Virus record (IMG/VR): IMGVR_UViG_3300014205_000177
Span: 113,805 to 177,804 of that record
Length of the DNA stretch: 64,000 nucleotides
Direction: 5' to 3' (one strand)
Origin: a virus
Taxonomy: Duplodnaviria > Caudoviricetes
Shown: positions 9,001-52,294 of the stretch, one piece after another
How positions within the stretch are numbered: the stretch's first letter is position 1
Layout: the number at the start of each line of letters is the position of its first letter
The notes under the pieces: generated by a model
Told to the model about the DNA's origin: nothing
Databases searched by the model: none
Seen by the model: the letters and a program-made list of their open reading frames with translations, nothing else
Position numbers and translations under genes: made by a program

Positions 9001-12000
9001 TAATAGCTTCACCTGCTTTTGTCACAGCTTTTTCTTTCATCTTTTTAGCTAATATAGCAGCATCCATTTGACTACTAGGGATTACTTCTTTATCAGGAAT
9101 TACTTCTTTATCAGTAATTACTTTTTCGTTATCTAATTCTTCAATCCTTTTGTCAATCTGTTCTTTTCTTTTTTTAATTTGTTTCTTTATACTTAACTTT
9201 TCTTCTGATGCTATTTTAACTTCTTCTAATTTTTTCTCATCAGGAATAGGTTTTTCTAAATTTTGACGTTCTCCATTATTATGTCTTAAAACTGTCATAA
9301 AACTATCTGTGTTTTCTTTACTCGAAGAAACCTTATCAAGACTTTCATTATCAAGACCATAATATGAAAATTTTTCTCTTAATGCAGATATTCTTTTTTC
9401 AACAGAATCTCTATTATTAAATTTGTCTTTTTTACCTTCTACTTCCATTCTTTGTAAATTAAGTTCTTCCATTTCTTGTATGGACTCTTTTTCTTTTTTA
9501 GAAAGTAATGAGGCTTCTGTTTTACCGTTTTTACTAAGAGCGTTTTGATATGTCTTTGTTGATTTCAAATTGTTCATTTTCTTCAATATAGAAGCATGTG
9601 TTATATCTAAAGGTTTTATATCTTGTGGGATATTCCCTAATTCCAATTTCGATTCTTGGTATTCTTTAAGTCCGTTTTCTATGTCATTATAATCTAATAT
9701 TGACATGTTAGAATTACTTGTAATTTTATTAAATTTTTCTAAACCATTCTCGTTACCGAATACATTGTTTAATAAATTTTTCTTACTATTAAGTAAATAT
9801 TGTATATAATTAACTTGTTCTTGTGGATTCTGATGACCTTTAATATTGTCTTGATTAAATGGAGATTCGTATCCTTCTGTTTTCTTCTTTCTTTGTTTTA
9901 TAAAATCTTTTATAGTTTCAAATTTTTCTCCATCAGGTCTGTGTAAATTAGCACCAAAAGCTGCAAAATTATCAGCATTTACCCCAGACATAATATTATT
10001 TTTACCTGAAACAATATCAATCATTCCTTGTAATAAAGCTTCGGGATTTTCTACATTCCCACCTCCAGCAAGTTGTATTAAGCTTTGAGAACTTTCTATT
10101 ATTTTAGAAAATGCTTCTATTTCTTTTTTTGGCATACCTTTAGGAGTATTAGCTAGTATTAAATCCTTTATACTGTCCATATTTCCATGCATTTGTACTG
10201 CACTGTAATTTCTTCCTAAAAGTCTTGTTGAAACACTCATACCTTCTTTCATAAAAGAAGGAAAAACATTTTCATATAAATTATCTAAAGAACCTTTTTT
10301 AGATTCAAGTTTTGCTATATCTTTAGATACTTTTAATCTTTCACTAGATGCTGGTAAAGTCTTTTTAAATAATTTTTCTTTTTCTTTAATTTGACTAACT
10401 ATCTTTTTATATTCTGGGTCATATTTTTTAGCTGTTTGCAATATCCCCTTTAATACACTATCTGTATCATTACTAGATGAAGAGATTATATTTAATGATT
10501 CATTTAATGTTTTTGATTCTTCTTCTGTAATGTTTCCACCACGAAATTCATAATCTTGTACTAATTGATAAACAGTTTTAAGAGCATTATAAGAATATTT
10601 AGTTTTTGCTTCTATATCTTTATCTATTGTGTTGCCCTTTTTATCTAAATTTTTATTATAAGCTTCAAAATCCTTTATAATATTTTCATTAACTTTGAAT
10701 TTACCTAAAGAACCAAAATCTTTTTTCTCTAAATCTAAACCACTAAGAACTATTCCTACATCTCCAAGTTTTTCAACTCCACTTCCAATATTTGGGGATA
10801 TTTTATTCTTTAAGAAATCTGCTAAAACACTTATATTATCTCCTGATTCTACATATTTAGTATCTTTTATATCAAACTTTTTATTTCCATATTTTACTAT
10901 TCCATCTTTACTCATTATTTCTTCATGAGCTTTTTCAAGTGCATTACCCTTGCCGAACAGTCTACCTGCTAATTCTTGAGCACCTGCATTGTTTTTTGCT
11001 TCTTTATATGCTGATTCTATTTCCATATGAGATGAAAGTTTATCCTGATAATTTTTATCATTTAAAAATTCTTTCGTTCCAAATTCTGGTCTTAATTTAC
11101 TACCAATTCCATCTTCTATAGCTTTAATTACTCCTTCTGGTGAGTAATCTTCGTTACCTTTTAAATATCTTGATATATCTTTTTCTTGTGAAACTTTTTC
11201 ATTTTCATCAGAATATCCAATCTTATCAACAAGAAATTTTACTATAGAGTTTTTAATCTCTCTACCAGATAATGAAAACTGTGCTTTTTTTGTTCCTATA
11301 TCATTATCAAAATATTTATTAGAATGATTGCTAATTGATGAAAGATTTTGAGGATTAAAAAGAACCGATTCTGTTGCAGGAATAGGAAATTTTGAATCTC
11401 TCCCTATTGATTCAAATTGATTCTTTTTAGTAGTAGAAATATCACCAATCATTCCTATTAAATTTTCTACAGCAAGACCAATAGGTGAAGAATCTGTATA
11501 TCCTGCAAACATACTTGAAGTAGCACCTGAAGCTAAACCCATTACTTCTGGTGAATATTTATGGTCTGGACTGTCTCCTCCGGCTAATTTTCTAAATGCT
11601 GTTTCACCAGAAAGGTTTAAATTAGACTTAGCTAATAAATTTTCTATAATAGAAATAAGTTTTAAATATTCTTTATTCTCTGAAATATTACTTTTTCTAA
11701 CCAATGAACCTGGTTCTATTCTATCATGATATTGATTTAAAATTTCTTGACCAGAAGCAATAGTTTCTGGAGTTATTACTGATTCTTTATCAAATAAACC
11801 TCCCCAGTTACCGTTTTTGGGACCAGTAATTGTTTCATAATTACCAATATTTGAGTTTTTTCTTACTCTCTTATTAACTGCTGTGCTTAAATTTCTACCC
11901 ATTGCTTCAAGCATTGGACCAGGAACTGATACATCTTTTTCATGCTCTTGTCCATCTTCAGTTTCCCATGTTTTTATTTTATAATTAGAAAATCCTACTG

Positions 12001-15000
12001 AGTTCTGAATAAATTGAGTAATATCATTACTATGTTCTCTAACACTTTCTCTTGATTGTCTAATCAAATTTTGAGCAATATTTTTCTCATGAACAGCATT
12101 CATTCTATCCTTACTTTCCAATCCTTCATTTATTTCACTTTTAGCTATTTCTCTTGTTTTTGCATATCTTGCTATTTCCTGTTCACTCATACCAGGGAAT
12201 TTCATTCCTAATGTTTTTAAAGCTTCTTTTCTTTGAGATATTGAATCTTTGTAAAATTCATTATTACCAAGATGTTCTTCTTCCAAATTATAAATATCTT
12301 TATAAATAGGAGTTTTCTCTTGTTCACTTTTCACATCCTTTAATTTTGCAAATAATTCTTTTCTTTTTTTAATAAATTCATCAAAAGAAGATACTTCAGA
12401 TTTTGCGTCGGCGTATGTTGTTATTTCTTTTACAGAATTAAGAACTGAATCATCTCCAAATAATATATTTGCCCCTGATTGCATTGATGGGACTGCTTCT
12501 GGATGTTCTTTATGTAAACCATGTGTTAACTTTCTTATCAAAGGATGTATTTTAGATTCAGATTCTTTTAATTGTTTTTTAAGTTTATCTTGTTGTCTTT
12601 TTGAACTATTTTCTGGTTTAGATAATGAAGATTTAATATTATCATAATCAACTAAATTTTGTTGTATACTAGAGTATTCTGAATTTTCTGTATTAACTCC
12701 ATTTTTGTAATCTTCTATAGAATTAACTAATCCAGTCAATCCTTTAAAGTCAGCTAGTGTCAACCCATAACCACTAAGCATCGCAGATTTTTTACTACTC
12801 TTAACTGTCATGCTTGAAGTGTGAAATAAATCAGGAAATAAACCTTTATTAACATTATCTGAAAGTACTGCTCCTTTTAATGAAGCTCTTTGTATATTAG
12901 AATTTTTAATAGCAATTAAATATTCAATTAACTTATCTATATTAGATTCATTAACCATCTCATTTAATACTTTTTTATTAAGTTTATTTTTATTAATATC
13001 TTGAATTAAACTTCTTAATAAATTAACTTTTTCTTCTTTATTTCCTGATACATCTTTTAATGAACCAGAAGTGTTATCATCTCCTACTAATCCTACAATT
13101 GAAGTTTTCCATATTTCTGATATTGCATTTTTATTTTTAGAATCTGAACTCAAACCTTTTATCTTTGAAAAATTAGATAACGCACTTAATCCTTCAGAAA
13201 TTTGACCTGATTGAACATAACTTAAACCCATATCTTCCATAATTTTATTTATATTCGAACTTGTTCTTTGAGTTCCACCTTTTCTTAATGCTATAGACTC
13301 TCTTCCTACATTTCTTAACTCATCAGATGATTTGTCTGAAAGAGATTTATTACCTGAAAAACCTCCTCTATAATTATTTGTAATAATAGACATTGGTCCA
13401 TTTTCAGTATTTAACATTTCTAATAACATAGCAGTAGATGGTGATGAAGATTTTTTATTAAATTCATTATCTTGATTAAATGCTCTCCATGACTCTTCTA
13501 TAATTTTAATTTTTTGAGGTTCTGAAAGAGTTACACCGTTTCTATCTTTTATATTATTATTTTTGAAATAATCCATTACTATCTTGCGATATTCTGACTT
13601 CATTTTTTCTATATTTTTTTGACTAGTATCTGAGCCTTGTTGACTATTAATTATATCATTAAAATGTTCTTCCATGCTATCTTGAGAAGATGCTTTTAAA
13701 TCAAAAAATCCAATCTTTATATTATTATGTTTTTTACCTTCTGAAACTTTTAATTTTTTATTTAAATAATCATCAATATTTTTATCAGTAGCACCATAGT
13801 CTTTAAAAAGCTTTCTTTGTTCTTTTGTTATTTTTTTAGTTTCTAATACCTTTTCATATTCTTTTCTTAACTCTATTGGCATTCCATCATCAACAGCAAC
13901 TTCATTTATAGCATTTTCATTAAATTCTGAATCCGATGCTTTTTCTTTAAAATTACCCATTTTAGCTTGTCTTATATATGCTCTTAAATTTTTAAATGCT
14001 TCTGGAGCACCTTGTTTGCCTCTAGTAACAACAGGATTTGAACTACTTACATTTAAAGAATGGAGAGCCATCCCTATTTCGTTATTAACATCAGCTTGAA
14101 CTGCTAAAGAATGTTCTGATAAAGGCTTTTGTACTTGTTTCATAGAATCTGTTTTTTCATCATACACTCTAGTTGATATTGGCATTCTACCAATATGCTT
14201 AGAAATATAACTTTGTTCATCTTCTCCTTCTTTACGTTCATCCCATTTAAATCTTTTACCAAACAATTCTTTCATTACTGATGTTTGTGATGGGAAAAAT
14301 TGTTTTTCTAGATACCTTGAAGAAGAAGCAGCATTTAAAGCTCCCTTTTGGAAATCTCTATTTATCAACCTCTTATCTGAACCAAAGCTTCCAAAAGACA
14401 TAGGAGATGAATTGCTAAAATATTGACTGACACTAGCTCTAATCATTTTTGCATAATTTTGTATAGCACGTTCAGATTGAATACCTTGAGATTCTATGAA
14501 TTTTAATATTCCAGACCTCAAAGACTCTTGTTTTTTAGATAAGTTTTTATCTTCTATATTAAGTGCTTTATCAATATCTGATGATACATTAGAAAAATCT
14601 TTAGATTTTATTAAAATATTAGATACTAAAGAAGATGCTAAATTAGCGGAACCACGAGCACCCATTCCATATGATTCAATATTGCTTGATAACTCATTTT
14701 TTAAATTGTTTTTTGAATTTTTATCAAGCTTTAATCCACTTTTTTTAACTTCAATTAATGATGCTATTTGAGTTGCAATTTCATTAATATTTATATTTGC
14801 AGTTTTTGGTTCTTTTTGTGCTAAATTTTCTAAACCAGTACCTTTATAGGCTGCTCTTGTATGAACATTTTCATGAACTCCAACTAAAAGTTCGCCTTCT
14901 TGGGAAAGACCTGGCTTTATATAAATGTTTGAATTTTGTCCAGAGTGTTCTACTCTACCAACTTCATTTTCTGAAAATTTTCCTCCATTAATGACTTTTA

Positions 15001-15991
15001 CATTTCTTCCTGTTTGCCTAGATGTTTCTTCTGAAAAGTCTTTTATGTAAGAAGTATATTTTCTTGAACTTTGCACAGAATTGTTATTATTCATTCTCAT
15101 ACTACTAGTAGCAACTGGAGGAGCATGTGTCCTGTGTTCTTTTTCCCCAGAATCTGTAGATACTGGATTTTCTGATGTATTTACTGGTGTTATTTTATCT
15201 TTTTTAACTTTATTAGTTTGTATTACTCTTTCTGAGGAAACAGTACCTACCATTTGAGCATATTCGTTTAATTTTTTCTTCAATTTTTTATCTTGTTCTA
15301 AAAACTTATTTAAAATACTATCAGATGCACTAAAATCAGGACCAGCTACTGGTGATACTGAACTTCCAGATTTTTGTGTTTTTTGTTGGGTGTTTGATTC
15401 TCCAGATGCAAATTTTTCAAAAACTTTAAGTCTATTATTGATAGATTCAATATTTGATGAAGAATTATTATTTAAAGCTACTTGTTCTGATAATTTATTA
15501 ATGGCAGTCATAACGGCTACTTGTTGCTGAGAAATAGCAACCATTTCGGCTCTTGAATCTGGGATATTAGTAACAGCTTGAGTTATTTTGCTTAGTTCAG
15601 GTTTTAAATTACTATTTGCGATATTAATTTTCATTGATTCGGCAATGTCTTTAATCGGGAATGATTCTGGACTTTGTGATTTTAATCCATTATTCATTTC
15701 ATTAAATGATGTGATTGTACTTTTCATACTATGAATTGCATTTGACATTTCTTCAAAATTTATAGAACTAAATTTCTTTTCTAATTTTGAACTTTCTGTA
15801 AACATTTTTTCAGCAGCTTTTAGGCGTGAATTTATTTGATTAAGGATACTATTTTCTCCAGAATCACTTAATTTACTTTCTAATGTAGTAACCTTATCTA
15901 TGAAATCTGATGTATTACCCTGGTCTACTTCAAGACCAAGTTTTATTAACCAGTTTTCCTGTTGCATTCCACCACTTTTATCTTCTGCCAT
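1..15991 (-). CDS. Giant tape measure protein, at least 5330 aa, 3' end outside window
   Basis: ATG at 15991 (MAEDKSGGMQQENWLIKLGLEV); frame open wherever translated by hand, including near base 1; absent from the ORF track, consistent with no stop in the window. TP901-type TMP core at about 6780-7650 (SYETALVNVNKV...LSDAVKQAGTSA...LQNLGVAVYNVDGGFRD); follows tail chaperone genes. Confidence 0.88.
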   Translation of the reverse strand, partial: MAEDKSGGMQQENWLIKLGLEVDQGNTSDFIDKVTTLESKLSDSGENSILNQINSRLKAAEKMFTESSKLEKKFSSINFEEMSNAIHSMKSTITSFNEMNNGLKSQSPESFPIKDIAESMKINIANSNLKPELSKITQAVTNIPDSRAEMVAISQQQVAVMTAINKLSEQVALNNNSSSNIESINNRLKVFEKFASGESNTQQKTQKSGSSVSPVAGPDFSASDSILNKFLEQDKKLKKKLNEYAQMVGTVSSERVIQTNKVKKDKITPVNTSENPVSTDSGEKEHRTHAPPVATSSMRMNNNNSVQSSRKYTSYIKDFSEETSRQTGRNVKVINGGKFSENEVGRVEHSGQNSNIYIKPGLSQEGELLVGVHENVHTRAAYKGTGLENLAQKEPKTANININEIATQIASLIEVKKSGLKLDKNSKNNLKNELSSNIESYGMGARGSANLASSLVSNILIKSKDFSNVSSDIDKALNIEDKNLSKKQESLRSGILKFIESQGIQSERAIQNYAKMIRASVSQYFSNSSPMSFGSFGSDKRLINRDFQKGALNAASSSRYLEKQFFPSQTSVMKELFGKRFKWDERKEGEDEQSYISKHIGRMPISTRVYDEKTDSMKQVQKPLSEHSLAVQADVNNEIGMALHSLNVSSSNPVVTRGKQGAPEAFKNLRAYIRQAKMGNFKEKASDSEFNENAINEVAVDDGMPIELRKEYEKVLETKKITKEQRKLFKDYGATDKNIDDYLNKKLKVSEGKKHNNIKIGFFDLKASSQDSMEEHFNDIINSQQGSDTSQKNIEKMKSEYRKIVMDYFKNNNIKDRNGVTLSEPQKIKIIEESWRAFNQDNEFNKKSSSPSTAMLLEMLNTENGPMSIITNNYRGGFSGNKSLSDKSSDELRNVGRESIALRKGGTQRTSSNINKIMEDMGLSYVQSGQISEGLSALSNFSKIKGLSSDSKNKNAISEIWKTSIVGLVGDDNTSGSLKDVSGNKEEKVNLLRSLIQDINKNKLNKKVLNEMVNESNIDKLIEYLIAIKNSNIQRASLKGAVLSDNVNKGLFPDLFHTSSMTVKSSKKSAMLSGYGLTLADFKGLTGLVNSIEDYKNGVNTENSEYSSIQQNLVDYDNIKSSLSKPENSSKRQQDKLKKQLKESESKIHPLIRKLTHGLHKEHPEAVPSMQSGANILFGDDSVLNSVKEITTYADAKSEVSSFDEFIKKRKELFAKLKDVKSEQEKTPIYKDIYNLEEEHLGNNEFYKDSISQRKEALKTLGMKFPGMSEQEIARYAKTREIAKSEINEGLESKDRMNAVHEKNIAQNLIRQSRESVREHSNDITQFIQNSVGFSNYKIKTWETEDGQEHEKDVSVPGPMLEAMGRNLSTAVNKRVRKNSNIGNYETITGPKNGNWGGLFDKESVITPETIASGQEILNQYHDRIEPGSLVRKSNISENKEYLKLISIIENLLAKSNLNLSGETAFRKLAGGDSPDHKYSPEVMGLASGATSSMFAGYTDSSPIGLAVENLIGMIGDISTTKKNQFESIGRDSKFPIPATESVLFNPQNLSSISNHSNKYFDNDIGTKKAQFSLSGREIKNSIVKFLVDKIGYSDENEKVSQEKDISRYLKGNEDYSPEGVIKAIEDGIGSKLRPEFGTKEFLNDKNYQDKLSSHMEIESAYKEAKNNAGAQELAGRLFGKGNALEKAHEEIMSKDGIVKYGNKKFDIKDTKYVESGDNISVLADFLKNKISPNIGSGVEKLGDVGIVLSGLDLEKKDFGSLGKFKVNENIIKDFEAYNKNLDKKGNTIDKDIEAKTKYSYNALKTVYQLVQDYEFRGGNITEEESKTLNESLNIISSSSNDTDSVLKGILQTAKKYDPEYKKIVSQIKEKEKLFKKTLPASSERLKVSKDIAKLESKKGSLDNLYENVFPSFMKEGMSVSTRLLGRNYSAVQMHGNMDSIKDLILANTPKGMPKKEIEAFSKIIESSQSLIQLAGGGNVENPEALLQGMIDIVSGKNNIMSGVNADNFAAFGANLHRPDGEKFETIKDFIKQRKKKTEGYESPFNQDNIKGHQNPQEQVNYIQYLLNSKKNLLNNVFGNENGLEKFNKITSNSNMSILDYNDIENGLKEYQESKLELGNIPQDIKPLDITHASILKKMNNLKSTKTYQNALSKNGKTEASLLSKKEKESIQEMEELNLQRMEVEGKKDKFNNRDSVEKRISALREKFSYYGLDNESLDKVSSSKENTDSFMTVLRHNNGERQNLEKPIPDEKKLEEVKIASEEKLSIKKQIKKRKEQIDKRIEELDNEKVITDKEVIPDKEVIPSSQMDAAILAKKMKEKAVTKAGEAISESTPVTNGQFSGLNKIENVLLQIERGVLNLSTIVSKSISNMSKVTDNMISLVKFIIDSGKGVNNQKLNLPNIEETSLPSSSDLEAANAENASSNSRLAALKVEQQSNNLNNKDSLSGKNNGRGKKIKVEAETPEIPTNVPPIRPKVGETSGPSYKDGDISVNIAEVQKAVREDIRQRIKMFEKYFQTVSSKALYKNDAQSMAEIGLIKEGKTAIVADVGYKVQEKMPSSPEGQQVFKEVLKPILKESQPITAVDVTKDRLQKTKSETNEEYSKRLLTYALTMSVEKDSRREAIMKNIVSKINKKEEEKLSLSDAEEIKIVNPKKVKKNGEFETETVKISAYEATVRDLRDAPGTSNPEHIASVTKGVLLSHIENENKKRTAKNLPKIESFPAAALMSSTQASKISKEYDSTMSKNYRQEQSQGKLVNSVINRVVLYGGLSYAFYGMTNKIAEATKVMASYETALVNVNKVMDPMMTSTERLSDSAKKMSSIYGTNIIEVVDSMAVFAQQGKSTSDVITLTNASLLASNVAGFKATEATEALTAATRQFGIEDSKTLSIIDSWTEVGARTAVTSKNLSDAVKQAGTSARVSGMSFHEFNGIVSAVGSATRDTGNSLGNSFKYILSHLRVEESITALQNLGVAVYNVDGGFRDSFTIMQDLASKWTTLSTVQKENAAVTIAGARRYNTMMVLMDQWDEVLQAAKMSEDSTGSAMQKNMLIMDTYAKKVEVMKASVDSFYAKVGESGGKSILTYFSNTLTNIFGILNSMPSGIAGLAAVGGTVFGAGTAIARTISYSGADRWINHKTEESRIAKITAKEVSSYLKKDYTGKTRALYNPAMYDYQYNKLQKMESSDENEIIKKIMVSHYGEKGVSRFSEEERKTVEGKVRTQFNSQIDKTTQNAIIQKEPGQIPIKISEFVKQNMVAMMAAGVGLKVFAQTFEDKESISGRSLTGDTLNTLGSGAAIAPMALMAGQKVSNMVGGKGGKFAGGAVGLTIAGLTMASDIKDLINNISEYWSGSDRKTVAMIEKESSKIKSITSSISTYEKLTGKQEKGEILTTLENSNLKNATSILMRANPESVVFKNGFPSLSEEFVSKMSQEGEIREKRKDELRMNLAYKKAFMTDGGIFGKTAISSISENLAEERDRAKELTDTRKILVGKMDSSTSESNKVYYQSKIYNLDAALDEVYGRMEEAKTKAEKVFEPFIDLFNETGRQISSDARERGSRVFNNDTVDERFVKTRESYIKTFGKDKYVETSFNAIKDTAESGRSLNPHKDALQMAKDTNKMFLLLNDGYQKVGDNVKKFKIVVQDVYTNQQKTIGFDTERGLNKTQVLKRAKEEIKKQFGGIYDDKKEFILSTTEISDEMFDLPMTSVKQFATTAKSSFQEIINDYTRLERKIFKPLDFQKMSILTPKDSDSELDSRFASFNDFGSNYSKLMGDTSTFDIKDYKKLSNEESNRDYFAEINSRLAEISNNENSGIAGLMENSIYMSKFKSGFDIKAIKMVNTLVNQESRKKMSAAELSSLGEESPENLTSAELMKKELNDLFKGTGVSVEHLISKYGDDPEKLRKELTKFTNIGKERYSKSSGISDSEKENEKKIIDLVSKTAGVQTSTRESLGFYKEKRKREILLKTGDYTESDAAMVDSEVITKSAEITKNIFSSVKKIKEKAISDFSKAIESDQVEVDNNKFKRDNKLTSETERKSLSDIIVSQEKSINESKSRQKAYIDLLNMLEENTAKINPVDENTSLIIRNSKSKAIREASKGNLLGGYTGSEENNLLINLAQIKNLEAAKKIEDDKIAGIKAKGEDITPLEKIMLRQAEINSKSFSDALSPILNNTKEINNKVGDMRAQREQTQRKLATEFFVNKMMGSERTLSSQVELSKGGLSDAFELSKRITNALEENSFYGKGGMSQEFFSLMKEFGDTEKEIGKSGDPGYMKNWLLASPQEQAIASFIESQKESGISLQEIFSDTGMKEYAKDHSLIGSLMDKMVRQEESSKLVESQSKLSNILLHLANIAERLVSKVGKESETGKNLDSGAKNAISSANSLNNPYLSGVIKAQKIWKESKKGNTSADVITPAESREINYNVISRVAPTSERVENNSNSSRSNALGLATLGIPLAVMPKQTFANIGKSIKKFFTPNDMYKGKIGERTSSVAESVFGHIPEIKLQKNMQEDANGTFNSLTKEINIRRGLSSKESVRYANHEVNHSIMDYLSNRNNKKFRYIGDTVVDELSTSAAAHALDNKYSKGRINLDSYFTPVSKSGSGKLHKNIYKSIDYALESSGNSPHARIKTISDIMGGKNGYGPLAKIIGENFTFKEGGELIGEKLPKVSKTLKDYADEIEIRQEPPTPVSRKRKLDEESRKIRNRRKPKEKIEEPVRVETSGERSRRIARERMSNKGIPFEPAVKPSFGDNFQKTGSSFISGMAAYYYGKDAAEDFKKGDSKSIISGIGKSAVSGSFLYEALSKSPKSSIATAAASIMYAGSSAYNNFAKTNNYKDIPMALGDTAVESLPLLAFNSKIRGWGGKLASYAGDKTGITKLATPYISKAIEKSPSWMKSPMKLARGINKIGAMNPKGSLIGMGLSMTAPLTSYAAERITGREDIGDAVGMASHLAFLGLDPSMAIMSGGINATQDMLGSEGYFRSKKHDIDGFSQKENENYKKSVGLTDWEYNSRNNGISRYINKSGMLKGGGIVSEILDRSATAISQADKYLTGGYVSKRLGSKANQIEKKEEQNNIYNMVKTHKNTTNDPSKRDSLIHYDGENKRREREIDKNSIAKVMDLAKSMGATEELPQDTQASILQESSMYKGKGKTLEERSNIFRIFRERILEAKRESLKREYESKNNKASLALRVISPIAAISHLWSDEKKDEIAPNKANFAIKKAIDLAKRTGIENDNKQIETLLSDKNVNSEYNNQLDKKFNDKKAGLEKDASTSKKSYRDYFNSIIDDGTEPSEESYNNPSELSRKVTSEEYSKLMEKHRKMKDDEDKVKELTPES

Positions 15992-28315: not shown

Positions 28316-31300
28316 TTAATTCCAGAATCCCCCAGCTAATGATTGAGGTTTGTTAATGTTTTCTAAATAATTATATGCTAAATCATGCCCTATTAACACA
28401 GCACTATATCTATCTTTTCTTTGTTTTTTCTGTGGAGTGTCCCAATGCATCCTTCCAGAACCAGGTGTTAAGGTCACAACAATGTTTTGTATTTCATTCA
28501 TTGTTTCTAATATTTGTTTATACATTAGTTCATCTTCAGTGCTTTCTTCATCATGACAATTTGTTAATAATCCTTTTTCACATGGGAATAATAAAGTACC
28601 ATTTTGTAAAGAAAGTAATAAATTATGATTTGCATTGTGAACCCATTCATATCTTGAAAATTCTACTAATTCAAGCATTCTATTGCCTTTCATAAATCTA
28701 TGTTCTTCAAATCCCCTTTGTAGAATAGGAGTTTCTCCAACAGACAATGTTTTGGAATCTGCCAATAAGTCTCTTATAGTTTGACCCCCTCCTCCTGAAT
28801 CCATTGCAAATTCAGTTATATTATATTCTTTTATAAGATTTCTTATTTCTCTATGCATAACAGGATATGGTTGTTTATTATAGGCTAAAACTCTTTTAAG
28901 TTTTATTAGTCTTTTTGCTATATCAATTGTAAATATGGCAATTGCAAAATTATCACCATTACGAGCTGGGTCTATACCCATTACATTTACAAAACCTGAT
29001 TGTTTAGCAAGTGATTTTTCACATGAAAATGAATAATGTAACTGTGATTTATCGAGAAGTGAACGTTGAAAGAAACCATCTGAGTCAGCAGGAAAATAAT
29101 TTTCATATTCCATTCTAAATTGATAGTCTGGCATATTTAACTTTGCTTCATCAATAGAACTTCTGTTCATAAATCCTTCTGGATAATCATTATGTGTAAA
29201 TGCTACTAAAGCCCTGTTATTATCTTTCATTATATTATAAGGTATTTGAGGACCAGATTCATTACCTCTTAATTCTATACCTTGTAAATCTTCTGGTATT
29301 TCTTGATTATTATTAAATAATTTAATATATCTATCTTGTTTTTCCATAATTGAATCAATATAACTCTTAACAGAAACCCAAAAATGATTATATTGATAAT
29401 AAGAAGTAGAAGAAAGAACTATTTTATTACTATATAATTTTTCTATTTTATTAATTTTACCTAAAGCTAAAAGTTTCTTTTGTTCTTCTATAAATCTTAC
29501 TTGTTCCATTGGGTTTTTAGAAGTTGCCATCATACCACGAATAACTACATCTAAAACTTCCTTATTTACCTGAGCTACTTCGTCTACAATAACAGTAAAA
29601 AAACGAGCACCACGAATTGTTCCCCCGTCACCTATAGGTAACGCTTGAATAACAGAGCCTGGTTTATTGCATACTGATTTAAATTGGAGATAGCACATAT
29701 CTGTCATTTTAGTAGGTTTCTTTTCACAACAATCTCTTAAAAGAAGAGATGTTTCATATATTCTTTCTATTTCAGAAAAAACAAATTTTGACTGACGAAA
29801 AGATGCACCAAATATACCAACTTTTTCGCCAGGAAATAGTAATGCTCTTAAAATTGCAAATACAGCATCAATAAAAGTATTGTGAGATATAAATCCATTG
29901 GATATAAAAGTATGGTCGTCTGGAATATGAACATCGTAAGTATGCTCTTCTGGAAGAATTTCTTTCTCTACAACAATATCAAAAAAGTAATTTTTTTCTG
30001 ATATATCTTTTAACTTTTTCCAATTTTCGCTATCACTGCAATCCTTAGTTAACTCTAAAAATTCATTTAAAAATCTATAAGATGGATTGTATTCTAATAG
30101 GTGAGTATTCTGCAATAACGTTCTTGATTTTCTATCTAGTTTATATTCCACCTTGTTTTTTAAGTAATCATTTTTCACAGAAATAAGAATATCCGATAGG
30201 AAAGGAATCACATCCTTATTGGGATTGAATTTTTTATTCAGCAATAACGTCTCAAGTTTGTCTTGTTTCCTATTACATTTAAATCCTATCTTTTCTGCAA
30301 AAATTTTTGCTGAATTTGAATATATAAACAATCTCCATGAATCTCTTCTTGATTCAATTCCTTTGTAAATATATTTTACCGACTTATAATGGATAGAAGA
30401 AATAATTCCAAAAGATAAAAGAACCACCTGAAGTTGTTTTAATAGTTTTTCAGAACATGATGAAAACTCAACCCCTCTATCAGTAACACTTCCATCGGTA
30501 TCTGCATATCCAGAAATAAATGATGCCAATACTTTTTTATTTGATTGTAGTATTGACTCTGGTATTTCTTTTTCTTTTGATTTTACTTTTTTAAGCTTGT
30601 ATTTACTAAAGAATTCTTTATCTCTATAAGCTCCTCCGAAATTCAAACTAAATTCTATTTTATCCTTTAGTTCTGAAAACTTACAAGCTCCTAGTTTTTT
30701 ATAATTTTCTCTGAAAATATTTATTATGTCTTCATCTGTATTGGTAAATCCAACCCCTCCGGATTTTACAAAGCATCCATCGCCAATTAATGCTCCAATC
30801 ATATATCCTTCTATTTCTGATATCCAGTTAAATTCTCCGCTGAATTCATACTTATCATCCCTATTAATGACTACATAATCTCCAATTTTTATATCATCAT
30901 TTCTTTTCCATGTAATATTTCCATTTTCAAAACATCTAATCATGTGCTTGTCTACTGATTTTATTTCGTAGCCGTGACAAGTTCTTGTTCTGTAAATTTG
31001 TTTTGGTTCGTTTTTGTATGTGTGCGATGTATTTTTGAATCCGTTTTCTCCATACATTTGGATTACACTCTCTTTAAGTCCAAACTCTTCTGATTTGTGA
31101 AGTCCTGCTATTTCATGGAATCCACTATTGAGAAGACACATAGAGTCTCCAACTATGCATTTACCAGAACCACGGGACAAAACCATAATCACATTATTAC
31201 AGTCCCACATTGCTCTAAGTGCAATTCTTTGATGTGGAGCAAGGTCAATACCAAGTAAATCCCTTGCTGCTGCTGCTGGGTCTTCTTTATAAATTCTTAC

Positions 31301-31345
31301 CATCTCCATTAATTGAATATCGTCTTCTGCAAAATTCTGTATCAT
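28316..31345 (-). CDS. terL: Terminase large subunit with intein
   Basis: Walker A SRGSGK(T), Walker B VIVDE, nuclease GIDPAR...MDSGGGG...KDRYSA. Confidence 0.93.
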   Translation of the reverse strand: MIQNFAEDDIQLMEMVRIYKEDPAAAARDLLGIDLAPHQRIALRAMWDCNNVIMVLSRGSGKCIVGDSMCLLNSGFHEIAGLHKSEEFGLKESVIQMYGENGFKNTSHTYKNEPKQIYRTRTCHGYEIKSVDKHMIRCFENGNITWKRNDDIKIGDYVVINRDDKYEFSGEFNWISEIEGYMIGALIGDGCFVKSGGVGFTNTDEDIINIFRENYKKLGACKFSELKDKIEFSLNFGGAYRDKEFFSKYKLKKVKSKEKEIPESILQSNKKVLASFISGYADTDGSVTDRGVEFSSCSEKLLKQLQVVLLSFGIISSIHYKSVKYIYKGIESRRDSWRLFIYSNSAKIFAEKIGFKCNRKQDKLETLLLNKKFNPNKDVIPFLSDILISVKNDYLKNKVEYKLDRKSRTLLQNTHLLEYNPSYRFLNEFLELTKDCSDSENWKKLKDISEKNYFFDIVVEKEILPEEHTYDVHIPDDHTFISNGFISHNTFIDAVFAILRALLFPGEKVGIFGASFRQSKFVFSEIERIYETSLLLRDCCEKKPTKMTDMCYLQFKSVCNKPGSVIQALPIGDGGTIRGARFFTVIVDEVAQVNKEVLDVVIRGMMATSKNPMEQVRFIEEQKKLLALGKINKIEKLYSNKIVLSSTSYYQYNHFWVSVKSYIDSIMEKQDRYIKLFNNNQEIPEDLQGIELRGNESGPQIPYNIMKDNNRALVAFTHNDYPEGFMNRSSIDEAKLNMPDYQFRMEYENYFPADSDGFFQRSLLDKSQLHYSFSCEKSLAKQSGFVNVMGIDPARNGDNFAIAIFTIDIAKRLIKLKRVLAYNKQPYPVMHREIRNLIKEYNITEFAMDSGGGGQTIRDLLADSKTLSVGETPILQRGFEEHRFMKGNRMLELVEFSRYEWVHNANHNLLLSLQNGTLLFPCEKGLLTNCHDEESTEDELMYKQILETMNEIQNIVVTLTPGSGRMHWDTPQKKQRKDRYSAVLIGHDLAYNYLENINKPQSLAGGFWN
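29879..31159 (-). mobile_element. 427 aa intein with LAGLIDADG homing endonuclease in TerL
   Basis: Starts CIVGDS, ends NGFISHN, followed by Thr; GALIGDG and SGYADTDG motifs. Confidence 0.93.
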
Positions 31346-38948: not shown

Positions 38949-39024
38949 GGGGATGTAGCTCAATTAGGAGAGCATCGGTCTGTCGAACCGAAGGTCGTGG
39001 GGGCAGAACCCATCATCCTCGCCA
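38949..39024 (+). tRNA. tRNA-Asp(GUC)
   Basis: Loop CTGTCGA, G73, CCA. Confidence 0.9.
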
Positions 39025-39118: not shown

Positions 39119-39208
39119 GGGGAGGTAGCTCAGAGGCAGAGCGTCGGGCTAGGTGGTGAAAACCACCGAATCTGAAGGTCGCTGGTTCGAATCCAGCCTT
39201 CCCCACCA
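39119..39208 (+). ncRNA. tRNA-like RNA with a hairpin inserted in the anticodon loop
   Basis: Intact acceptor, D and T arms and CCA; loop reads CTA-GGTGGT-GAAA-ACCACC-GAA. Confidence 0.8.
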
Positions 39209-43343: not shown

Positions 43344-43718
43344 ATGAATACTTTAAGAAACACGAACGAAGAAGTAATAGATTTGAAGAAAGAGGAATAT
43401 AAGAAGAATATTAAAAGGATGAAGGCTAACGTTAAACTGGTGTCAAATAACATAAAAGAAATGAAAGAAGAATTAAAGACTAAGCAAAAAAAAGGTGATT
43501 ATAAAAGTTGGTCTTTAATGAGTGATTTAAATTCTTATAAAAATGATGTCAGAAATACACATATAGCTTATGCTATGGCAAAAGGGAGAGTCTACCAAAA
43601 AATTGAGTCAAAAGTTAGAGATAACAATGAACCAAACTGGTGGGCAATAAAGGCAAATATAGAAAATTTCTTCGGAAAGAAATTTGAAATTGTTGACTTC
43701 AAGGTAAACTTTCTATGA
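43344..43718 (+). CDS. Hypothetical protein upstream of Pth2-like gene
   Basis: 124 aa; RNTHIAYAMAKGRVYQKIE motif. Confidence 0.75.
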   Translation: MNTLRNTNEEVIDLKKEEYKKNIKRMKANVKLVSNNIKEMKEELKTKQKKGDYKSWSLMSDLNSYKNDVRNTHIAYAMAKGRVYQKIESKVRDNNEPNWWAIKANIENFFGKKFEIVDFKVNFL

Positions 43719-44017
43719 AAAAGGTATTTATAATAACCAGGAAAGACCTTGAAAATGGAGCAAGAATAGTTCAGTCTGTTCATTCATTCCATGAGTTGGC
43801 AAGAAAAAATGAAGAAATATTGAATCAGGTATATAATACAATATGTTACAAAATAGAAGACGAACTATCATTAAAAGAAGTTTCTGAGAGGATAGCAAGT
43901 AATCTAAACGAAAAAGAATATGCATGGTTCAGAGAAACAGATTACAATAATCAATTGACCTCTTTTGCAGTCTTTACAAACAAGAAAGAGCTGTTTAAAG
44001 GTTTAAGATTGGCGTAA
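43715..44017 (+). CDS. Peptidyl-tRNA hydrolase 2-like protein
   Basis: IITRKDL..GARIVQSVH...FRETDYNNQLTSFA...LF..LRL pattern. Confidence 0.7.
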   Translation: MKKVFIITRKDLENGARIVQSVHSFHELARKNEEILNQVYNTICYKIEDELSLKEVSERIASNLNEKEYAWFRETDYNNQLTSFAVFTNKKELFKGLRLA

Positions 44018-45137: not shown

Positions 45138-45211
45138 ATGTCTATAGTTCAATAGTAGAACGGGAGTCTCCAAAACTCTTGACGAGGGGGCAGTACCTTC
45201 TAGACATGCCA
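45138..45211 (+). tRNA. tRNA-Trp(CCA)
   Basis: Loop CTCCAAA, G73, CCA. Confidence 0.88.
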
Positions 45212-45792: not shown

Positions 45793-46191
45793 ATGTGTAT
45801 CAAAATCAAGGCGATGGAAAATGGAGTAATGATTCAAAGCAGAGAAGAATATGAAGATATAATGGATATTCTATTGGATGCAGGTCTTCGGACAGTGAGT
45901 GGAAAATATTTTGGAGAATGTGACTGGTTTAATGAAACCGGAACCGAAACAGTTATAGATTTGAGAAATCTGGAGTCTATTGCATATGGTGAATATCAGT
46001 ATTTTATTGATAATGATATCCCGGTTTGTAATTTCCAGGATTTTCTTACAGAACAGGGTTTAACACCAAACGGATGCATTAGCGGTGAACAACAGATATT
46101 TATGCGTAGGGCAAAGTTGAAATGTCCAAAAATGAAAAAGAAAGAAATCAGAAGACTTGCAAAGGCAATCGTGAGGGAGATGAACAAATGA
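45793..46191 (+). CDS. Hypothetical protein
   Basis: AGGAG RBS; promoter upstream. Confidence 0.7.
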   Translation: MCIKIKAMENGVMIQSREEYEDIMDILLDAGLRTVSGKYFGECDWFNETGTETVIDLRNLESIAYGEYQYFIDNDIPVCNFQDFLTEQGLTPNGCISGEQQIFMRRAKLKCPKMKKKEIRRLAKAIVREMNK

Positions 46192-46769
46192 AAGCAAGAA
46201 CTAAAAAAGAAGTAGTGCAAATAGGATTATTAGTTGATGAGAGTGGTTCTATGTATAGCCTCTCTGGTGATACAATCGGTACGGTTAATGGTTTCATTAA
46301 AGACCAGAAAAAAGTAAAAGGAGAAGCAGAAATAACAATAGCTTCATTTAATGATAACTATAAACTCATTAAAGATAGAGAAGATATCAAAAATATTGAA
46401 GAAATTACCAGCGAAGATTATTCTCCATCTGGAATGACGGCATTATATGATTCTATTATGAAAATAATTTCTTCCATAGAAGAGACAAAAGCTAAAAAAG
46501 CGATAATCGCTATTATTACAGATGGAATGGAAAACTCAAGTATTGAATATAAAGATTCAAGTGTAATTAAAGAAAAAATACAGCAGAAACAAAAAGACGG
46601 GTGGCAGATATTATTTCTAGCTGCAAATATTGACGAAAAGGCAGTGGGTGCAAGTTTCGGAATAAATGCAATGTACACTCAGGCGTTTACTCCTACAGCA
46701 GATGGCGTAATAGGTGCTATGTCATATACATCGAGATGCGTTAGTGATTACAGGGGCAATAATGATTAA
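46188..46769 (+). CDS. vWA-domain protein
   Basis: MIDAS DESGSM, GMTALYD, ITDGMENSS. Confidence 0.88.
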   Translation: MKARTKKEVVQIGLLVDESGSMYSLSGDTIGTVNGFIKDQKKVKGEAEITIASFNDNYKLIKDREDIKNIEEITSEDYSPSGMTALYDSIMKIISSIEETKAKKAIIAIITDGMENSSIEYKDSSVIKEKIQQKQKDGWQILFLAANIDEKAVGASFGINAMYTQAFTPTADGVIGAMSYTSRCVSDYRGNND

Positions 46770-47637: not shown

Positions 47638-47725
47638 GGGTGTTGTCCCCCACGGAAGTCTGTAAAACTTTTGACATATGTAAGTGGGGTGGCGTCAAGT
47701 GGTTCAATTCCACCAATACCCACCA
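47638..47725 (+). tRNA. tRNA-Tyr(GUA), non-canonical fold
   Basis: Loop CTGTAAA; 8-bp acceptor, 4-bp T stem; no normal D-arm. Confidence 0.65.
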
Positions 47726-47893: not shown

Positions 47894-47984
47894 GGAAGTT
47901 TGCCGGAGATGGATTATCGGCTCTCATTGGAAATGAGATGGTCACTTAAGTGGCACGAAGATTCGAATTCTTCAACTTCCGCCA
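47894..47984 (+). tRNA. tRNA-Ser(GGA)
   Basis: Loop TTGGAAA, long V-arm, G73. Confidence 0.88.
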
Positions 47985-47992
47985 GTTTTAAT

Positions 47993-48125
47993 GGGGGTGA
48001 AATTTATTCGATTATGGTTTCGCAATGTGGTAGCTTGGAAGCAATGGTAGCAAATGCACTTGAAAACTCTACCATCCACACTTAGGAAACCGTAAGACCT
48101 GGGTTAAATCCCAGCACTTCCACCA
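47993..48125 (+). ncRNA. Minimal tmRNA-like RNA, 133 nt
   Basis: GGGGGTG/CACTTCC-A-CCA with G3:U70; ATTCGA D-loop analogue; helix TTATGGTTTC/GAAACCGTAA; GAC then T-arm. Confidence 0.7.
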
Positions 48126-48447: not shown

Positions 48448-48724
48448 CCCCATGTGGCGGAATGGCAGACGCAACGGACTTATTAATTTGAGCCTTATAT
48501 TGGAAACTTTATAAGTGGACATGGCTAATTCGGTGAATCCTTTAATATGGTAACGCCGAGCTATCGAAAGAGAGTGTAGAGACTTTACACCATGTGCCTA
48601 AGTCTATGAAGATATGGCAAAGACAAAGTCCAGACCACGCAAGAAGAGAGTAGTGAAAACTATAGTGGTACGAAAATTCGTCGCCCGTTAGGGCGTGAGG
48701 GTTCGACTCCCTCCTTGGGGACCA
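48448..48724 (+). tRNA. tRNA-Leu(UAA) split by a group I intron
   Basis: Exons 48448-48481 and 48673-48724 rebuild loop CT-TAA-AA. Confidence 0.9.
48482..48672 (+). mobile_element. Group I intron (trnL-UAA type), 191 nt
   Basis: Inserted U^AA; P AATTCGGTGAA, Q AACGCCGAGC, R GTAGAGACT, S AAGACAAAGTCC; terminal G. Confidence 0.9.
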
Positions 48725-48802: not shown

Positions 48803-49717
48803 ATGAAATATACAAAAGAGATGCTAGAAGAGGCAATTAAAAATAATGTTAGTTTTGCGGGAGTTCTAAAAAGTTTTGGATTACATCCGTCCGGTGGTAG
48901 TCATAGACTAATAAAATCAAAAGCATTAAGTTTTGGAATAAGTACGGAACATTTTCTTGGAAAGGCATCAAATTGCGGAAGTAGGTACAAAGGTGGGTTA
49001 GAAAAAATAAGTTTTTCAGATGTGTTAGTGTACGATAGAAGAAATGGAATGAGGGAGAGTGCCTCTAAACTAAAAAGGTCTATGCTGGAAAGCGGGATAG
49101 AATATAAGTGCGAAAAGTGTAACAATGATGGTGTCTGGATGGATGGTTTTGTGTCTTTGGAGGTTCATCACAAAAATGGAGATACTTTTGACAACACAAA
49201 AGAAAACCTTGTATTTATATGTCCCAATTGTCACAGTCAAACTGACAACTTTCGTGGAAGAAATAAGGTTGAAAAAGATATTCAACAAATAAGAACAGAA
49301 GAGGAGGTTGTTGCAGCACTTCTAAAGAGTAAAAATATAAGACAATCACTTATAGAACTAAATTTGGCTCCATACGGAGGTAATTACGATAGGATTAAAA
49401 GAGTAATGATAAAAAAGGATATTGAGTTCAATAAAAAAGAAAAGAAAACTGCAACATGTCCGTCGTGCGGAAATAAAAAAGATTACTCCAGCGCAGAATG
49501 TAGAAAGTGCGCAAGTATAAAGAGAGGTTTGGCAGAAAGAAAAGTTGAACGTCCATCAAAAGAAGGCTTGGAGAAAATGATTGCTGAACTTCCAATGACA
49601 AAGATTGGAAAAATGTTTGGAGTAAGTGATAATACTATTAGAAAATGGTGTAAGAATTACGGAATAGAATTAGGTAATAGATTAGGATACTGGACGAAGA
49701 TAAAATATAGCAAATAA
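48803..49717 (+). CDS. HNH homing endonuclease with C-terminal Zn finger and HTH
   Basis: CEKC...LEVHHKNGD..DNTKENL...CPNCHSQT. Confidence 0.9.
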   Translation: MKYTKEMLEEAIKNNVSFAGVLKSFGLHPSGGSHRLIKSKALSFGISTEHFLGKASNCGSRYKGGLEKISFSDVLVYDRRNGMRESASKLKRSMLESGIEYKCEKCNNDGVWMDGFVSLEVHHKNGDTFDNTKENLVFICPNCHSQTDNFRGRNKVEKDIQQIRTEEEVVAALLKSKNIRQSLIELNLAPYGGNYDRIKRVMIKKDIEFNKKEKKTATCPSCGNKKDYSSAECRKCASIKRGLAERKVERPSKEGLEKMIAELPMTKIGKMFGVSDNTIRKWCKNYGIELGNRLGYWTKIKYSK

Positions 49718-50497: not shown

Positions 50498-50616
50498 GTT
50501 GGGTAGTGTAGATATGAGTTACTTCAAAGCTCAATGGTAGAGCATTTCTCTTGAAAAGAAAATGTTACTGGTTCAAATCCAGTTGATAATAAAGCTTGTA
50601 TCGCTTTTCTCCCAAC
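50498..50616 (+). ncRNA. YrlA-type Y RNA with tRNA-like domain
   Basis: GTTGGG/CCCAAC stem enclosing D-arm AGCTCAATGGTAGAGC, anticodon-like arm and T-arm CTGGTTCAAATCCAG; no acceptor CCA. Confidence 0.82.
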
Positions 50617-50740
50617 TCTTATTTTACGTCAACCATGTGTTGAATGTAGTGAACCTGTCATGGTACAGGTTTTGAGTTGGGTGGGGTTCTCGCATACCTC
50701 ACCCATTTTTTTTACAATTTATGCGAAAGGAAAAAGGAAA

Positions 50741-52294
50741 ATGACTATCAACGCAAAAAGGGAAAAGGTAGAAATGTCTCACAAAAATTTTATGAATGGA
50801 AAGTCTTATAATGTATCTCCATTTATAAGATTACAAATGGTAGCAGCTTCATGTTTTATGGGAGAACCTCAATATTACAAAAAAGCCGGAACAAAATATT
50901 CAACTATTGAATATATTGAAAAAGTTCTTGGGTCTCATTCAACAAACGATTGGAAAGGACTTAATTCAGTAGAAATTATAGAAAAAACTATTGATGAATG
51001 TTTAAGTATTGATGTTGAAAAAACTCTTATAATTGCAGAATCATTAAGGGTTGAAGACTATATGAGAGAAACACCACAAGTAATTTTAGTTAGAGCAGCA
51101 GTCCATAAAAATCAAAAGGGAACCGGTTTAGTAAATAAATATGGACTAAGAATTTGTATTCGTGGAGATGAACCAGCAACCGGACTAGCTTATCTATTGA
51201 AAGCTTTTGGAAGAAAATCAATTCCTAATTCCCTTAAAAAAGTTTGGAAAAGTGTTCTAGAAAGCCTGACCGATTATGAAATTGCAAAATATAAGATGGG
51301 TTCAAGAGAAGTTCGTACTATTGATGTTGTTCGTATTTGTCATGCTAATTCTGCATCCATTAATAAGTTAATGAGTGGAAATGCTAAAGAATTTAACACT
51401 TATCGTTCTATTATCTCTAATAGTGATAATTCAACATCTGAAGCAAGAGAAATTAACTGGAGAAAGGTTGTAGAAAAGTCTGGACATATGGCTTTATTGA
51501 GAAATATTCGTAACTTCGTTAAAAACGGAATACCTGTTTCTTATTTTTCAAATAAATTGAAGAATGGAGTTTTGGAAGGAAAGCAATTTCCATTTAGATA
51601 CTACAATGCAATGATTGAAAATAATGGTAATGGATATGTTAAAAACTGTTTGGAAGAATGTATGGATATTGCAATTAATAATATGCCAAAGTTCGAAGGT
51701 CGTGTAATGTCATTATGTGATAATTCAGGTTCTGCAACAAGTTCAAAATTATCTACACTTGGAAATACAAGTGTTTCTACAGTTGCTAACCTTATGGGTA
51801 TCATTACTGCAAAATGTTTCAGTAAAGGTGGACAATTGGGTCTTTTCGGAGATAAATTATCTATTGATGATGTAAATCCATCAAGAGGAGTTCTGTCAAC
51901 TCTTCAAACTATAGAAGAAAAGTCAAGATGGGTTGGGGGTGGAACAGAACATGGAGCATGGTTATTTTGGGATTATGCAACTAAAAACAACGAACATTAT
52001 GATTATGTTTTTGTTTATAGTGACATGCAAGCAGGACATGGTGGTCTTTATGGTAGCGATAATAGTTATATAAATTATATATATCCTGGAACTAGAAATT
52101 ATATAGATATTCCAAAATTAATATCTGAATATAGAAAGAAAGTAAACCCAAATGTTAAGGTATTTCTTGTACAAGTTGCAGGATATGAAGATACATTGAT
52201 TCCTGAATTCTATAAAAACACATATATTCTTGGTGGATGGAGTGAAAATATTCTTAAATTCGCAAAGAAAATGGAACAAATAAAACAATATTAA
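50741..52294 (+). CDS. rsr: Ro60/TROVE-domain RNA-binding protein with vWA domain
   Basis: GEPQYY, MRETPQ, HMALLRNIRN, QFPFRY, DNSGS, SDMQ; adjacent Y RNAs. Confidence 0.9.
   Translation: MTINAKREKVEMSHKNFMNGKSYNVSPFIRLQMVAASCFMGEPQYYKKAGTKYSTIEYIEKVLGSHSTNDWKGLNSVEIIEKTIDECLSIDVEKTLIIAESLRVEDYMRETPQVILVRAAVHKNQKGTGLVNKYGLRICIRGDEPATGLAYLLKAFGRKSIPNSLKKVWKSVLESLTDYEIAKYKMGSREVRTIDVVRICHANSASINKLMSGNAKEFNTYRSIISNSDNSTSEAREINWRKVVEKSGHMALLRNIRNFVKNGIPVSYFSNKLKNGVLEGKQFPFRYYNAMIENNGNGYVKNCLEECMDIAINNMPKFEGRVMSLCDNSGSATSSKLSTLGNTSVSTVANLMGIITAKCFSKGGQLGLFGDKLSIDDVNPSRGVLSTLQTIEEKSRWVGGGTEHGAWLFWDYATKNNEHYDYVFVYSDMQAGHGGLYGSDNSYINYIYPGTRNYIDIPKLISEYRKKVNPNVKVFLVQVAGYEDTLIPEFYKNTYILGGWSENILKFAKKMEQIKQY

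Follow-up and report, generated by a model that had tools for sequence, protein, structure and literature searches.

The phage-encoded RNAs most closely comparable to the element described here are tmRNAs that hold little more than a tRNA-like domain (TLD). Mycobacterium phage DS6A (NC_023744, about 28478-28560; tmRNA Website tmID 11587) carries such a "TLD-only", or CDS-less, tmRNA (PMC4131195, PMC11915505). Its proposed role is interference with trans-translation and tagging; in E. coli, tmRNA is strongly inhibited by a DS6A-like molecule, whether or not that molecule can be charged, and titration of SmpB may be the cause (PMC4131195, PMC11915505). The CDS-less organellar tmRNAs, found in jakobid mitochondria and, at about 65 bp, in Mallomonadaceae plastids, likewise contain little beyond the TLD and are thought to be still SmpB-active (PMC11915505).

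We describe a 133-nt element that combines a tmRNA-style TLD with a helix-2-like stem, located at positions 47993-48125 on the + strand of a 64,000-nt stretch of phage DNA (the window). RNAs of this kind are already known from DS6A and from the CDS-less organellar forms; what is new here is a length greater than that of DS6A, a location within a tRNA operon, and an unusual elbow. The element and the DS6A RNA are both phage-borne and share a G3·U70 acceptor, a stemless D-loop analogue, a helix-2 stub, a GAC, and a T-arm; neither has pseudoknots or a conserved tag frame, and both are recovered by the same covariance model. The DS6A molecule is about 80 nt long with an 18-nt interior, whereas the element has a structured interior of 64 nt; DS6A has kept a 7-nt T-loop and the D-loop GG, and its CCA is not encoded, whereas the element lacks the GG, has a 6-nt T-loop, and encodes CCA. 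Unlike DS6A, it sits in a tRNA array. The hosts also differ: Mycobacterium for DS6A, whereas the phage studied here falls in the bin of a low-GC MAG, the tmRNA tag of which ends in ...NYALAA. The organellar CDS-less tmRNAs are organelle-encoded, shorter, and vertically inherited with no phage involved, in contrast to this phage-encoded element.

Anatomy and predicted fold

The tmRNA-style features that an earlier note on this DNA had listed for the tRNA-like domain are all present in sequence and fold, with two corrections of detail: the T-loop has 6 nt (UUAAAU) rather than 7, and the D-loop analogue lacks GG. The 5' strand of the acceptor stem, GGGGGUG (47993-47999), pairs at seven of seven positions with 48115-48121; the resulting 7-bp stem includes G3·U70 (47995·48119) and a second wobble, G4·U69. 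The stemless D-loop analogue that follows, AAAUUUAUUCGA (48000-48011), is 12 nt long, ends in UUCGA without the usual GG before it, and is unpaired in both the minimum free energy (MFE) and the centroid structure. Next comes the 5' strand of a helix-2a-like stem (48012-48021), which pairs with 48086-48095 over 10 bp without a mismatch; its counterpart in the phage mini-tmRNA class described below shows covariation. This stem encloses a 64-nt interior (48022-48085) where a full tmRNA would have its pseudoknots and message. The predicted fold of the interior comprises a 7-bp helix and two hairpins, one of 3 bp and one of 7 bp with an 18-nt loop, all of them nested; the tmRNA pseudoknots PK1-PK4 are absent.

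The 3' strand of the helix-2a-like stem leads directly into GAC (48096-48098), a trinucleotide preceding the T-arm that is common to the element, the tmRNAs of the MAG's order, and the class consensus. The T-arm (48099-48114) has a 5-bp stem, CUGGG/CCCAG, and the UUAAAU loop, one base below normal length and without the usual C. The 3' acceptor strand CACUUCC (48115-48121), in which U69 is position 48118 and U70 is position 48119, is followed by the discriminator A73 and an encoded CCA (48122-48125). All of these features lie on the + strand. The D-stem and the anticodon arm are both absent, and the architecture is therefore that of a tmRNA TLD plus helix 2.

The MFE of the element is -40.2 kcal/mol (z = -2.6), a value equalled in 2 of 200 shuffles. 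MFE and centroid structures concur, and all 39 predicted pairs are standard, with no mismatch. A motif that combines UUCGA with the 5' and 3' ends of the element has a single match in the window and none in 100 shuffled sequences.

Location in a phage tRNA array

The window corresponds to G000:C2:113805-177804, the final part of a 177,804-bp contig with a GC content of 0.30. The first ~123 bases of this contig recur at its end, which closes it into a circle of about 177.7 kb. The contig is a phage genome binned into a 4.04-Mb, 93%-complete MAG, and is read as such because of its phage genes: an intein-split large terminase (28316-31345) and a portal-like protein distantly related to those of Bacillus phages. 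A search with the portal protein across 400 genomes of the MAG's order found no related phage. The intein within the terminase gene (28316-31345, - strand) carries a LAGLIDADG homing-endonuclease domain (Intein_splicing 5e-13, LAGLIDADG_3 1e-18, Terminase_6C). On the same strand, positions 2-15991 form a single open frame of more than 5,330 codons that runs off the window start.

About 30 tRNA genes lie on the + strand between 38.3 and 50.6 kb of the window. The upstream neighbour of the element is tRNA-Ser(GGA) (47894-47984, +; called by ARAGORN and Rfam); the element begins 8 nt past its CCA, and no terminator-like site was found between the two. With a same-strand tRNA at this distance, the element belongs to the co-oriented tRNA array. 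Downstream, 105 nt separate its end from tRNA-His.

Further genes were noted in the array and its surroundings. A predicted tRNA-Leu(UAA) gene (48448-48724, +) has a 191-nt insertion in its anticodon loop (ARAGORN, introns allowed), in which Rfam at gathering thresholds found no group I intron; a free-standing HNH endonuclease gene (48803-49717, +) follows it. Four tRNA-like genes, all on the + strand, were either found by a single tool out of two or needed relaxed thresholds: 39119-39208, with a 15-nt insertion in the anticodon region; 47638-47725, Tyr-like with an aberrant D region; 38949-39024; and 45138-45211. No suppressor tRNA was seen in the window; a tRNA with a CUA anticodon (amber suppressor type, labelled Pyl by ARAGORN) occurs in a related phage, at 4247-4322 of a 164-kb ENA scaffold (L036). 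A small VWA-domain protein (phrog_7371; 46122-46769, +) adjoins tRNA arrays here and in several of the distantly related large phages retrieved, and is possibly a conserved partner of the Ro60/tRNA region. A VWA protein with 59% identity is present in ERZ1426829.

Comparison with full-length tmRNAs and standard models

The earlier note had proposed ARAGORN or Infernal tmRNA models as a check, and by these the element goes uncalled. ARAGORN reports neither a tmRNA nor a tRNA for it under default settings, and under relaxed settings yields only a spurious permuted call spanning tRNA-Ser. The element is unmatched at E <= 10 by all Rfam families, the tmRNA and organellar models included. An intron-containing tRNA was also considered and rejected: the one ARAGORN prediction obtained with introns allowed passes only a low threshold and begins at a base other than G1.

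The MAG itself encodes a full-length tmRNA (G000:C37:1-353; 170 bits; tag ...GEYNYALAA) and an SmpB (G000:C20:47159-47584). We compared the element with 28 tmRNAs from the MAG and related genomes of its order, most of which start with GGGGGUGAAAUUGGCUUCGAC and most of which finish with GGACGCGGGUUCGACUCCCGCCACCUCCA, with CCA encoded in about half. The GGGGGUG 5' end of the element is identical to that of most members of this set. Agreement with the order's tmRNAs, as with the MAG copy of standard SsrA (RF00023), extends over the first 12 nt, UUCGA, and GAC; in the acceptor 3' strand, six of seven bases match the order's CACCUCC, and the one C-to-U change creates G4·U69. In the T-stem the two outer pairs are changed on both sides, with pairing preserved. 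The element is also about 220 nt shorter than standard SsrA and differs from it in having no PK1-PK4, no degron tag, and an unrelated interior.

That interior resembles the interiors of the order's tmRNAs no more than shuffled sequences do. A recent internal deletion of the host tmRNA was therefore dropped. An antisense RNA to the host tmRNA was dropped as well, as the duplex energy at best equals that of shuffles. With an interior unlike those of the order's tmRNAs and no unusual complementarity to the host tmRNA, the element is neither a fresh deletion product nor an antisense RNA.

The identity elements for AlaRS are G3·U70 and A73 (PMC3968760). The phage's own tRNA-Ala has the same GGGG...UUCC-ACCA acceptor top, with G3·U70 and G4·U69; because of this shared design, the acceptor of the element is presumably acceptable to the host AlaRS.

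A class of phage mini-tmRNAs

We searched IMG/VR with a generic TLD pattern that placed no constraint on how long the D-loop was, on the T-stem, on the interior, or on acceptor positions 5 and 6 and the bases opposite them. The pattern returned 36 stretches of 98-127 nt. Despite the free positions 5 and 6, the acceptor is paired at 6 or 7 of 7 positions in 32 of them. Convincing mini-tmRNAs of 98-127 nt number 32 among these IMG/VR loci (L086-L120; for example L094:1671-1782, L103:8937-9046, and L120:2413-2529); a 112-nt form was found in about 10 viral contigs, and an interior motif, AAAGGCCCAYGCA, occurs in several. ARAGORN called no class member at the ten IMG/VR loci that were checked.

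From these sequences we assembled an alignment, A3, of 18 unrelated phage mini-tmRNAs of 100-127 nt, whose 7-nt T-loop was imposed by the search pattern. In A3, 93% of cells are paired, as against 69% after shuffling and 50-60% in slid controls; double-sided changes occur in 13 of 19 pairs (10.2 shuffled, 5-8 slid), and the covariation score is 0.66 (0.165 shuffled, 0.10-0.19 slid). Covariation is strong in the acceptor, helix 2a, and the T-stem.

A covariance model built from A3, here called R2, recovers the DS6A TLD-only tmRNA, used as a positive control, at 57.4 bits (E 3e-10). It recovers the element end to end (47993-48125, model positions 1-114) at 40.6 bits (E about 9e-7). Among the tRNAs of the window the highest score is 27.6 bits, and the phage tRNA-Ala reaches 23.2 bits. 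The element thus scores 13 bits over any of the ~30 tRNAs of the window and 17 bits under DS6A. On account of these scores, the element belongs with the phage mini-tmRNAs, and the earlier reading of it as a mini-tmRNA TLD is supported by both its anatomy and its recognition by a model that also finds DS6A.

The IMG/VR mini-tmRNAs and the element are alike in acceptor, D-loop analogue, helix 2a, GAC, and T-arm, as well as in having a variable interior of tens of nucleotides; two of them, L098 and L103, adjoin tRNA genes. Interior homology is lacking, except for a short CCAUCCAC match to L095 that was spotted by eye.

An unusual elbow

In tRNA-type elbows, the D-loop GG and the T-loop C pair with each other. 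The element has neither partner. Its D-loop analogue carries UA in place of GG and is one base shorter, whereas GG is present in all 28 tmRNAs of the order. The first G is invariant in all 18 aligned mini-tmRNAs, where it was not forced by the pattern. The T-loop is 7 nt long in 28 of 28 order tmRNAs, with the sequence UUCGACU or a close variant, and a C stands at its third position in every tmRNA examined; the UUAAAU of the element is without this C. The joint loss of the D-loop GG and the T-loop C could represent a remodelled elbow or the onset of decay.

The interaction between D-loop and T-loop has been linked to SmpB binding in the literature. The odd elbow of the element lowers our confidence that it would bind SmpB normally.

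Competition with host tmRNA as the favoured explanation

We lean, though only modestly, towards the view that the element is a real phage gene for a tag-less tmRNA mimic: a processed and probably alanylated competitor of the host tmRNA. We favour this reading because of the analogy with DS6A and the absence of a credible tag. The element would be transcribed with the tRNAs of the array, and RNase P and 3' trimming would release a CCA-ended RNA. G3·U70 and A73 would let the host AlaRS charge this RNA with alanine, and the product would vie with the host full-length tmRNA for stalled ribosomes and for SmpB and EF-Tu. Having no usable message, the RNA would blunt or short-circuit trans-translation, and with it the proteolytic tagging of infection-time proteins. 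The option of an SmpB/AlaRS decoy, raised in the earlier note, matches the published proposal for DS6A (PMC4131195, PMC11915505). Both the absent D-loop GG and the shortened T-loop weaken competition as an explanation. Also counting against it are the failure of the searches below to turn up a homologue that would reveal conservation or covariation of this RNA, the tRNA-Ser(CGA) that related phages have in its place, and the silence of ARAGORN and the Rfam tmRNA families. A phage-encoded rescue partner was considered and dropped: no SmpB, PTH2 (PF01981), or RF-1/ArfB domain is encoded on the phage contig. The gene at 43715-44017 (+) of the window has no Pfam match.

Searches for homologues and the possibility of decay

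No homologue of this particular RNA was found in IMG/VR, JGI metagenomes, or GTDB genomes. The motif of 5' end, UUCGA, and 3' end has only 6 matches in IMG/VR, JGI metagenomes, and 596 Gb of genomes; by folding and reading, these are unstructured and due to chance. BLAST found no match to the element in 166 genomes of the MAG's family, and none to a surrounding 601-nt stretch in GenBank phages. A single-sequence covariance model of the element (R1), run over 25 sources that included the related phages, and also over L076 and L077, over two IMG/VR records, and over the whole MAG, found only the element itself, which is single-copy in the MAG.

Related phages were identified via the neighbouring Ro60 and VWA genes, at about 40-59% protein identity; the closest Ro60 relative lies on a 2.2-kb contig too short to include the tRNA array. 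Their local order is tRNA-Ser(GGA) ... tRNA-His - tRNA-Leu, as in this phage, with tRNA-Ser(CGA) occupying the slot of the mini-tmRNA after tRNA-Ser(GGA). Because of this occupant, the mini-tmRNA gene looks like a lineage-specific cassette in a variable tRNA array.

These observations bear on an explanation that we regard as unlikely, although it survives better than the other alternatives: that a captured tmRNA-like cassette, decaying or neutral, is functionless and is merely carried and processed in the tRNA array. The element is a singleton in every collection searched, a tRNA-Ser(CGA) takes its position in related phages, the D-loop GG (with its class-invariant first G) and the T-loop C are lost, and the R2 score falls 17 bits short of that of DS6A, all of which would fit a remnant. 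The state of the molecule argues otherwise: all helices are intact and free of mismatches, and CCA, A73, and G3·U70 are retained. Moreover, the T-stem departs from the order's tmRNAs solely by pair-preserving double changes, and the mutually pairing GG and T-loop C were lost together, not singly.

The putative tag frame

The earlier note had also pointed to a possible non-degron tag. The frame exists: positions 48056-48085 read ALENSTIHT, or ANALENSTIHT from 48050, with a UAG stop, and the peptide contains no degron. Statistically, the proposal of a tag finds no support. We counted frames with a G(C/G)N start, 6-25 codons, and a closing stop, with a stricter version that adds A at -4. A frame of the first kind turns up in 62% of shuffled interiors and one of the stricter kind in 26%; the 32 phage mini-tmRNAs yield 16 and 4, respectively, and so show no enrichment. 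The UAG stop is immediately followed by the 3' strand of the 10-bp helix, and the T-arm is 14 nt away. Because of its chance frequency in shuffles, the lack of enrichment in the class, and the stop abutting a helix, the ALENSTIHT frame is not evidence of a message, and there is statistically no credible tag.

E. coli tmRNA takes its frame from the five nucleotides that precede the resume codon, chiefly A86 at -4; the change U85C is tolerated, and the pseudoknots are replaceable (PMC2481249). Ahead of the GCA at 48056 stand an A at -4, which corresponds to E. coli A86, and a C at -5, where E. coli tolerates that base (PMC2481249). The frame is open and closed by UAG, and the resume codon falls in the 18-nt loop of the predicted fold. 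These features fit a working minimal tmRNA, on which the ribosome would resume at GCA (48056 or 48050) and add ALENSTIHT or ANALENSTIHT without an LAA-type degron, so that ribosomes would be rescued and phage proteins spared. We judge such a molecule improbable. Frames of this sort are as common as chance predicts, they are not enriched in the class, and the searches returned no homologue in which conservation of the frame could be seen. The position of the stop, tight against the helix and close to the T-arm, also gives a geometry that we judge unfavourable for a closed RNA loop.

In its boldest form, this proposal would make the element a complete working trans-translation template, the smallest known, composed of a TLD, a single helix, a hairpin standing in for PK1, and a message of 10-12 codons, (A)NALENSTIHT, that encodes no degron. 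We consider this quite improbable. If true, it would mean that the phage runs its own ribosome rescue without destroying the rescued proteins; without the D-loop/T-loop pair, such an RNA might also engage SmpB in a manner unlike that of every known tmRNA.

Ro60, Y RNA-like genes, and attachment sites

A TROVE/Ro60 orthologue is encoded downstream of the tRNA array (50660-52294, +). Its relatives carry PF05731; the best non-self match, from SRR24750923, is 76% identical, and many others are about 50% identical. Directly upstream of this gene, at about 50498-50616 (+), lies a Y-RNA-like candidate in which a long closing stem surrounds a tRNA-like module; it matches the Rfam tRNA model at 53.9 bits (model positions 5-66), with a fold z of -2.3. 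Its motif GAGUUACUUCAA recurs at about 50227, and because of this recurrence there may be a second Y-RNA-like RNA there.

With a Ro60 gene 2.5 kb away, the element might be a tRNA-like RNA with a job outside ribosome rescue, for example as the Y RNA of the phage Ro60 or as a decoy for host enzymes that attack tRNAs. Work by Chen et al. in 2014 reportedly described tRNA-like modules in bacterial Y RNAs. We nonetheless hold a role of this kind to be highly improbable. The Ro60 gene has a separate Y-RNA-like candidate of its own directly upstream, and the closest matches of the element are tmRNA TLDs, not tRNAs. YrlA-type RNAs bring their 5' and 3' ends together in a long stem that binds Ro, and hold a closed tRNA-like module inside; the element is built the other way round, its acceptor ends and CCA being free and its interior capped.

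It is barely credible that the element is an attachment-site remnant, a tmRNA gene fragment carried so that the host gene is restored on phage insertion. Integration at tmRNA genes is frequent (PMC11915505), but here the 5' and 3' halves are both present and paired, when a 3' end would suffice for an attP copy; only 22 of the final 32 nt agree with the MAG tmRNA (manual alignment), and the element is part of a tRNA array in a ~178-kb genome with overlapping ends that make it circular.

Implications for phage biology

The only phage mini-tmRNA described in print is that of DS6A; dozens of unannotated relatives are now apparent in viral contigs. RNA genes missed by standard tools can lie concealed in ~130-nt gaps within phage tRNA arrays. 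The element, without its D-loop/T-loop contact, provides a natural test of the TLD features needed by a competitor or a minimal rescuer. More broadly, phage tmRNA mimics suggest that phages manipulate ribosome rescue and protein tagging in their hosts.
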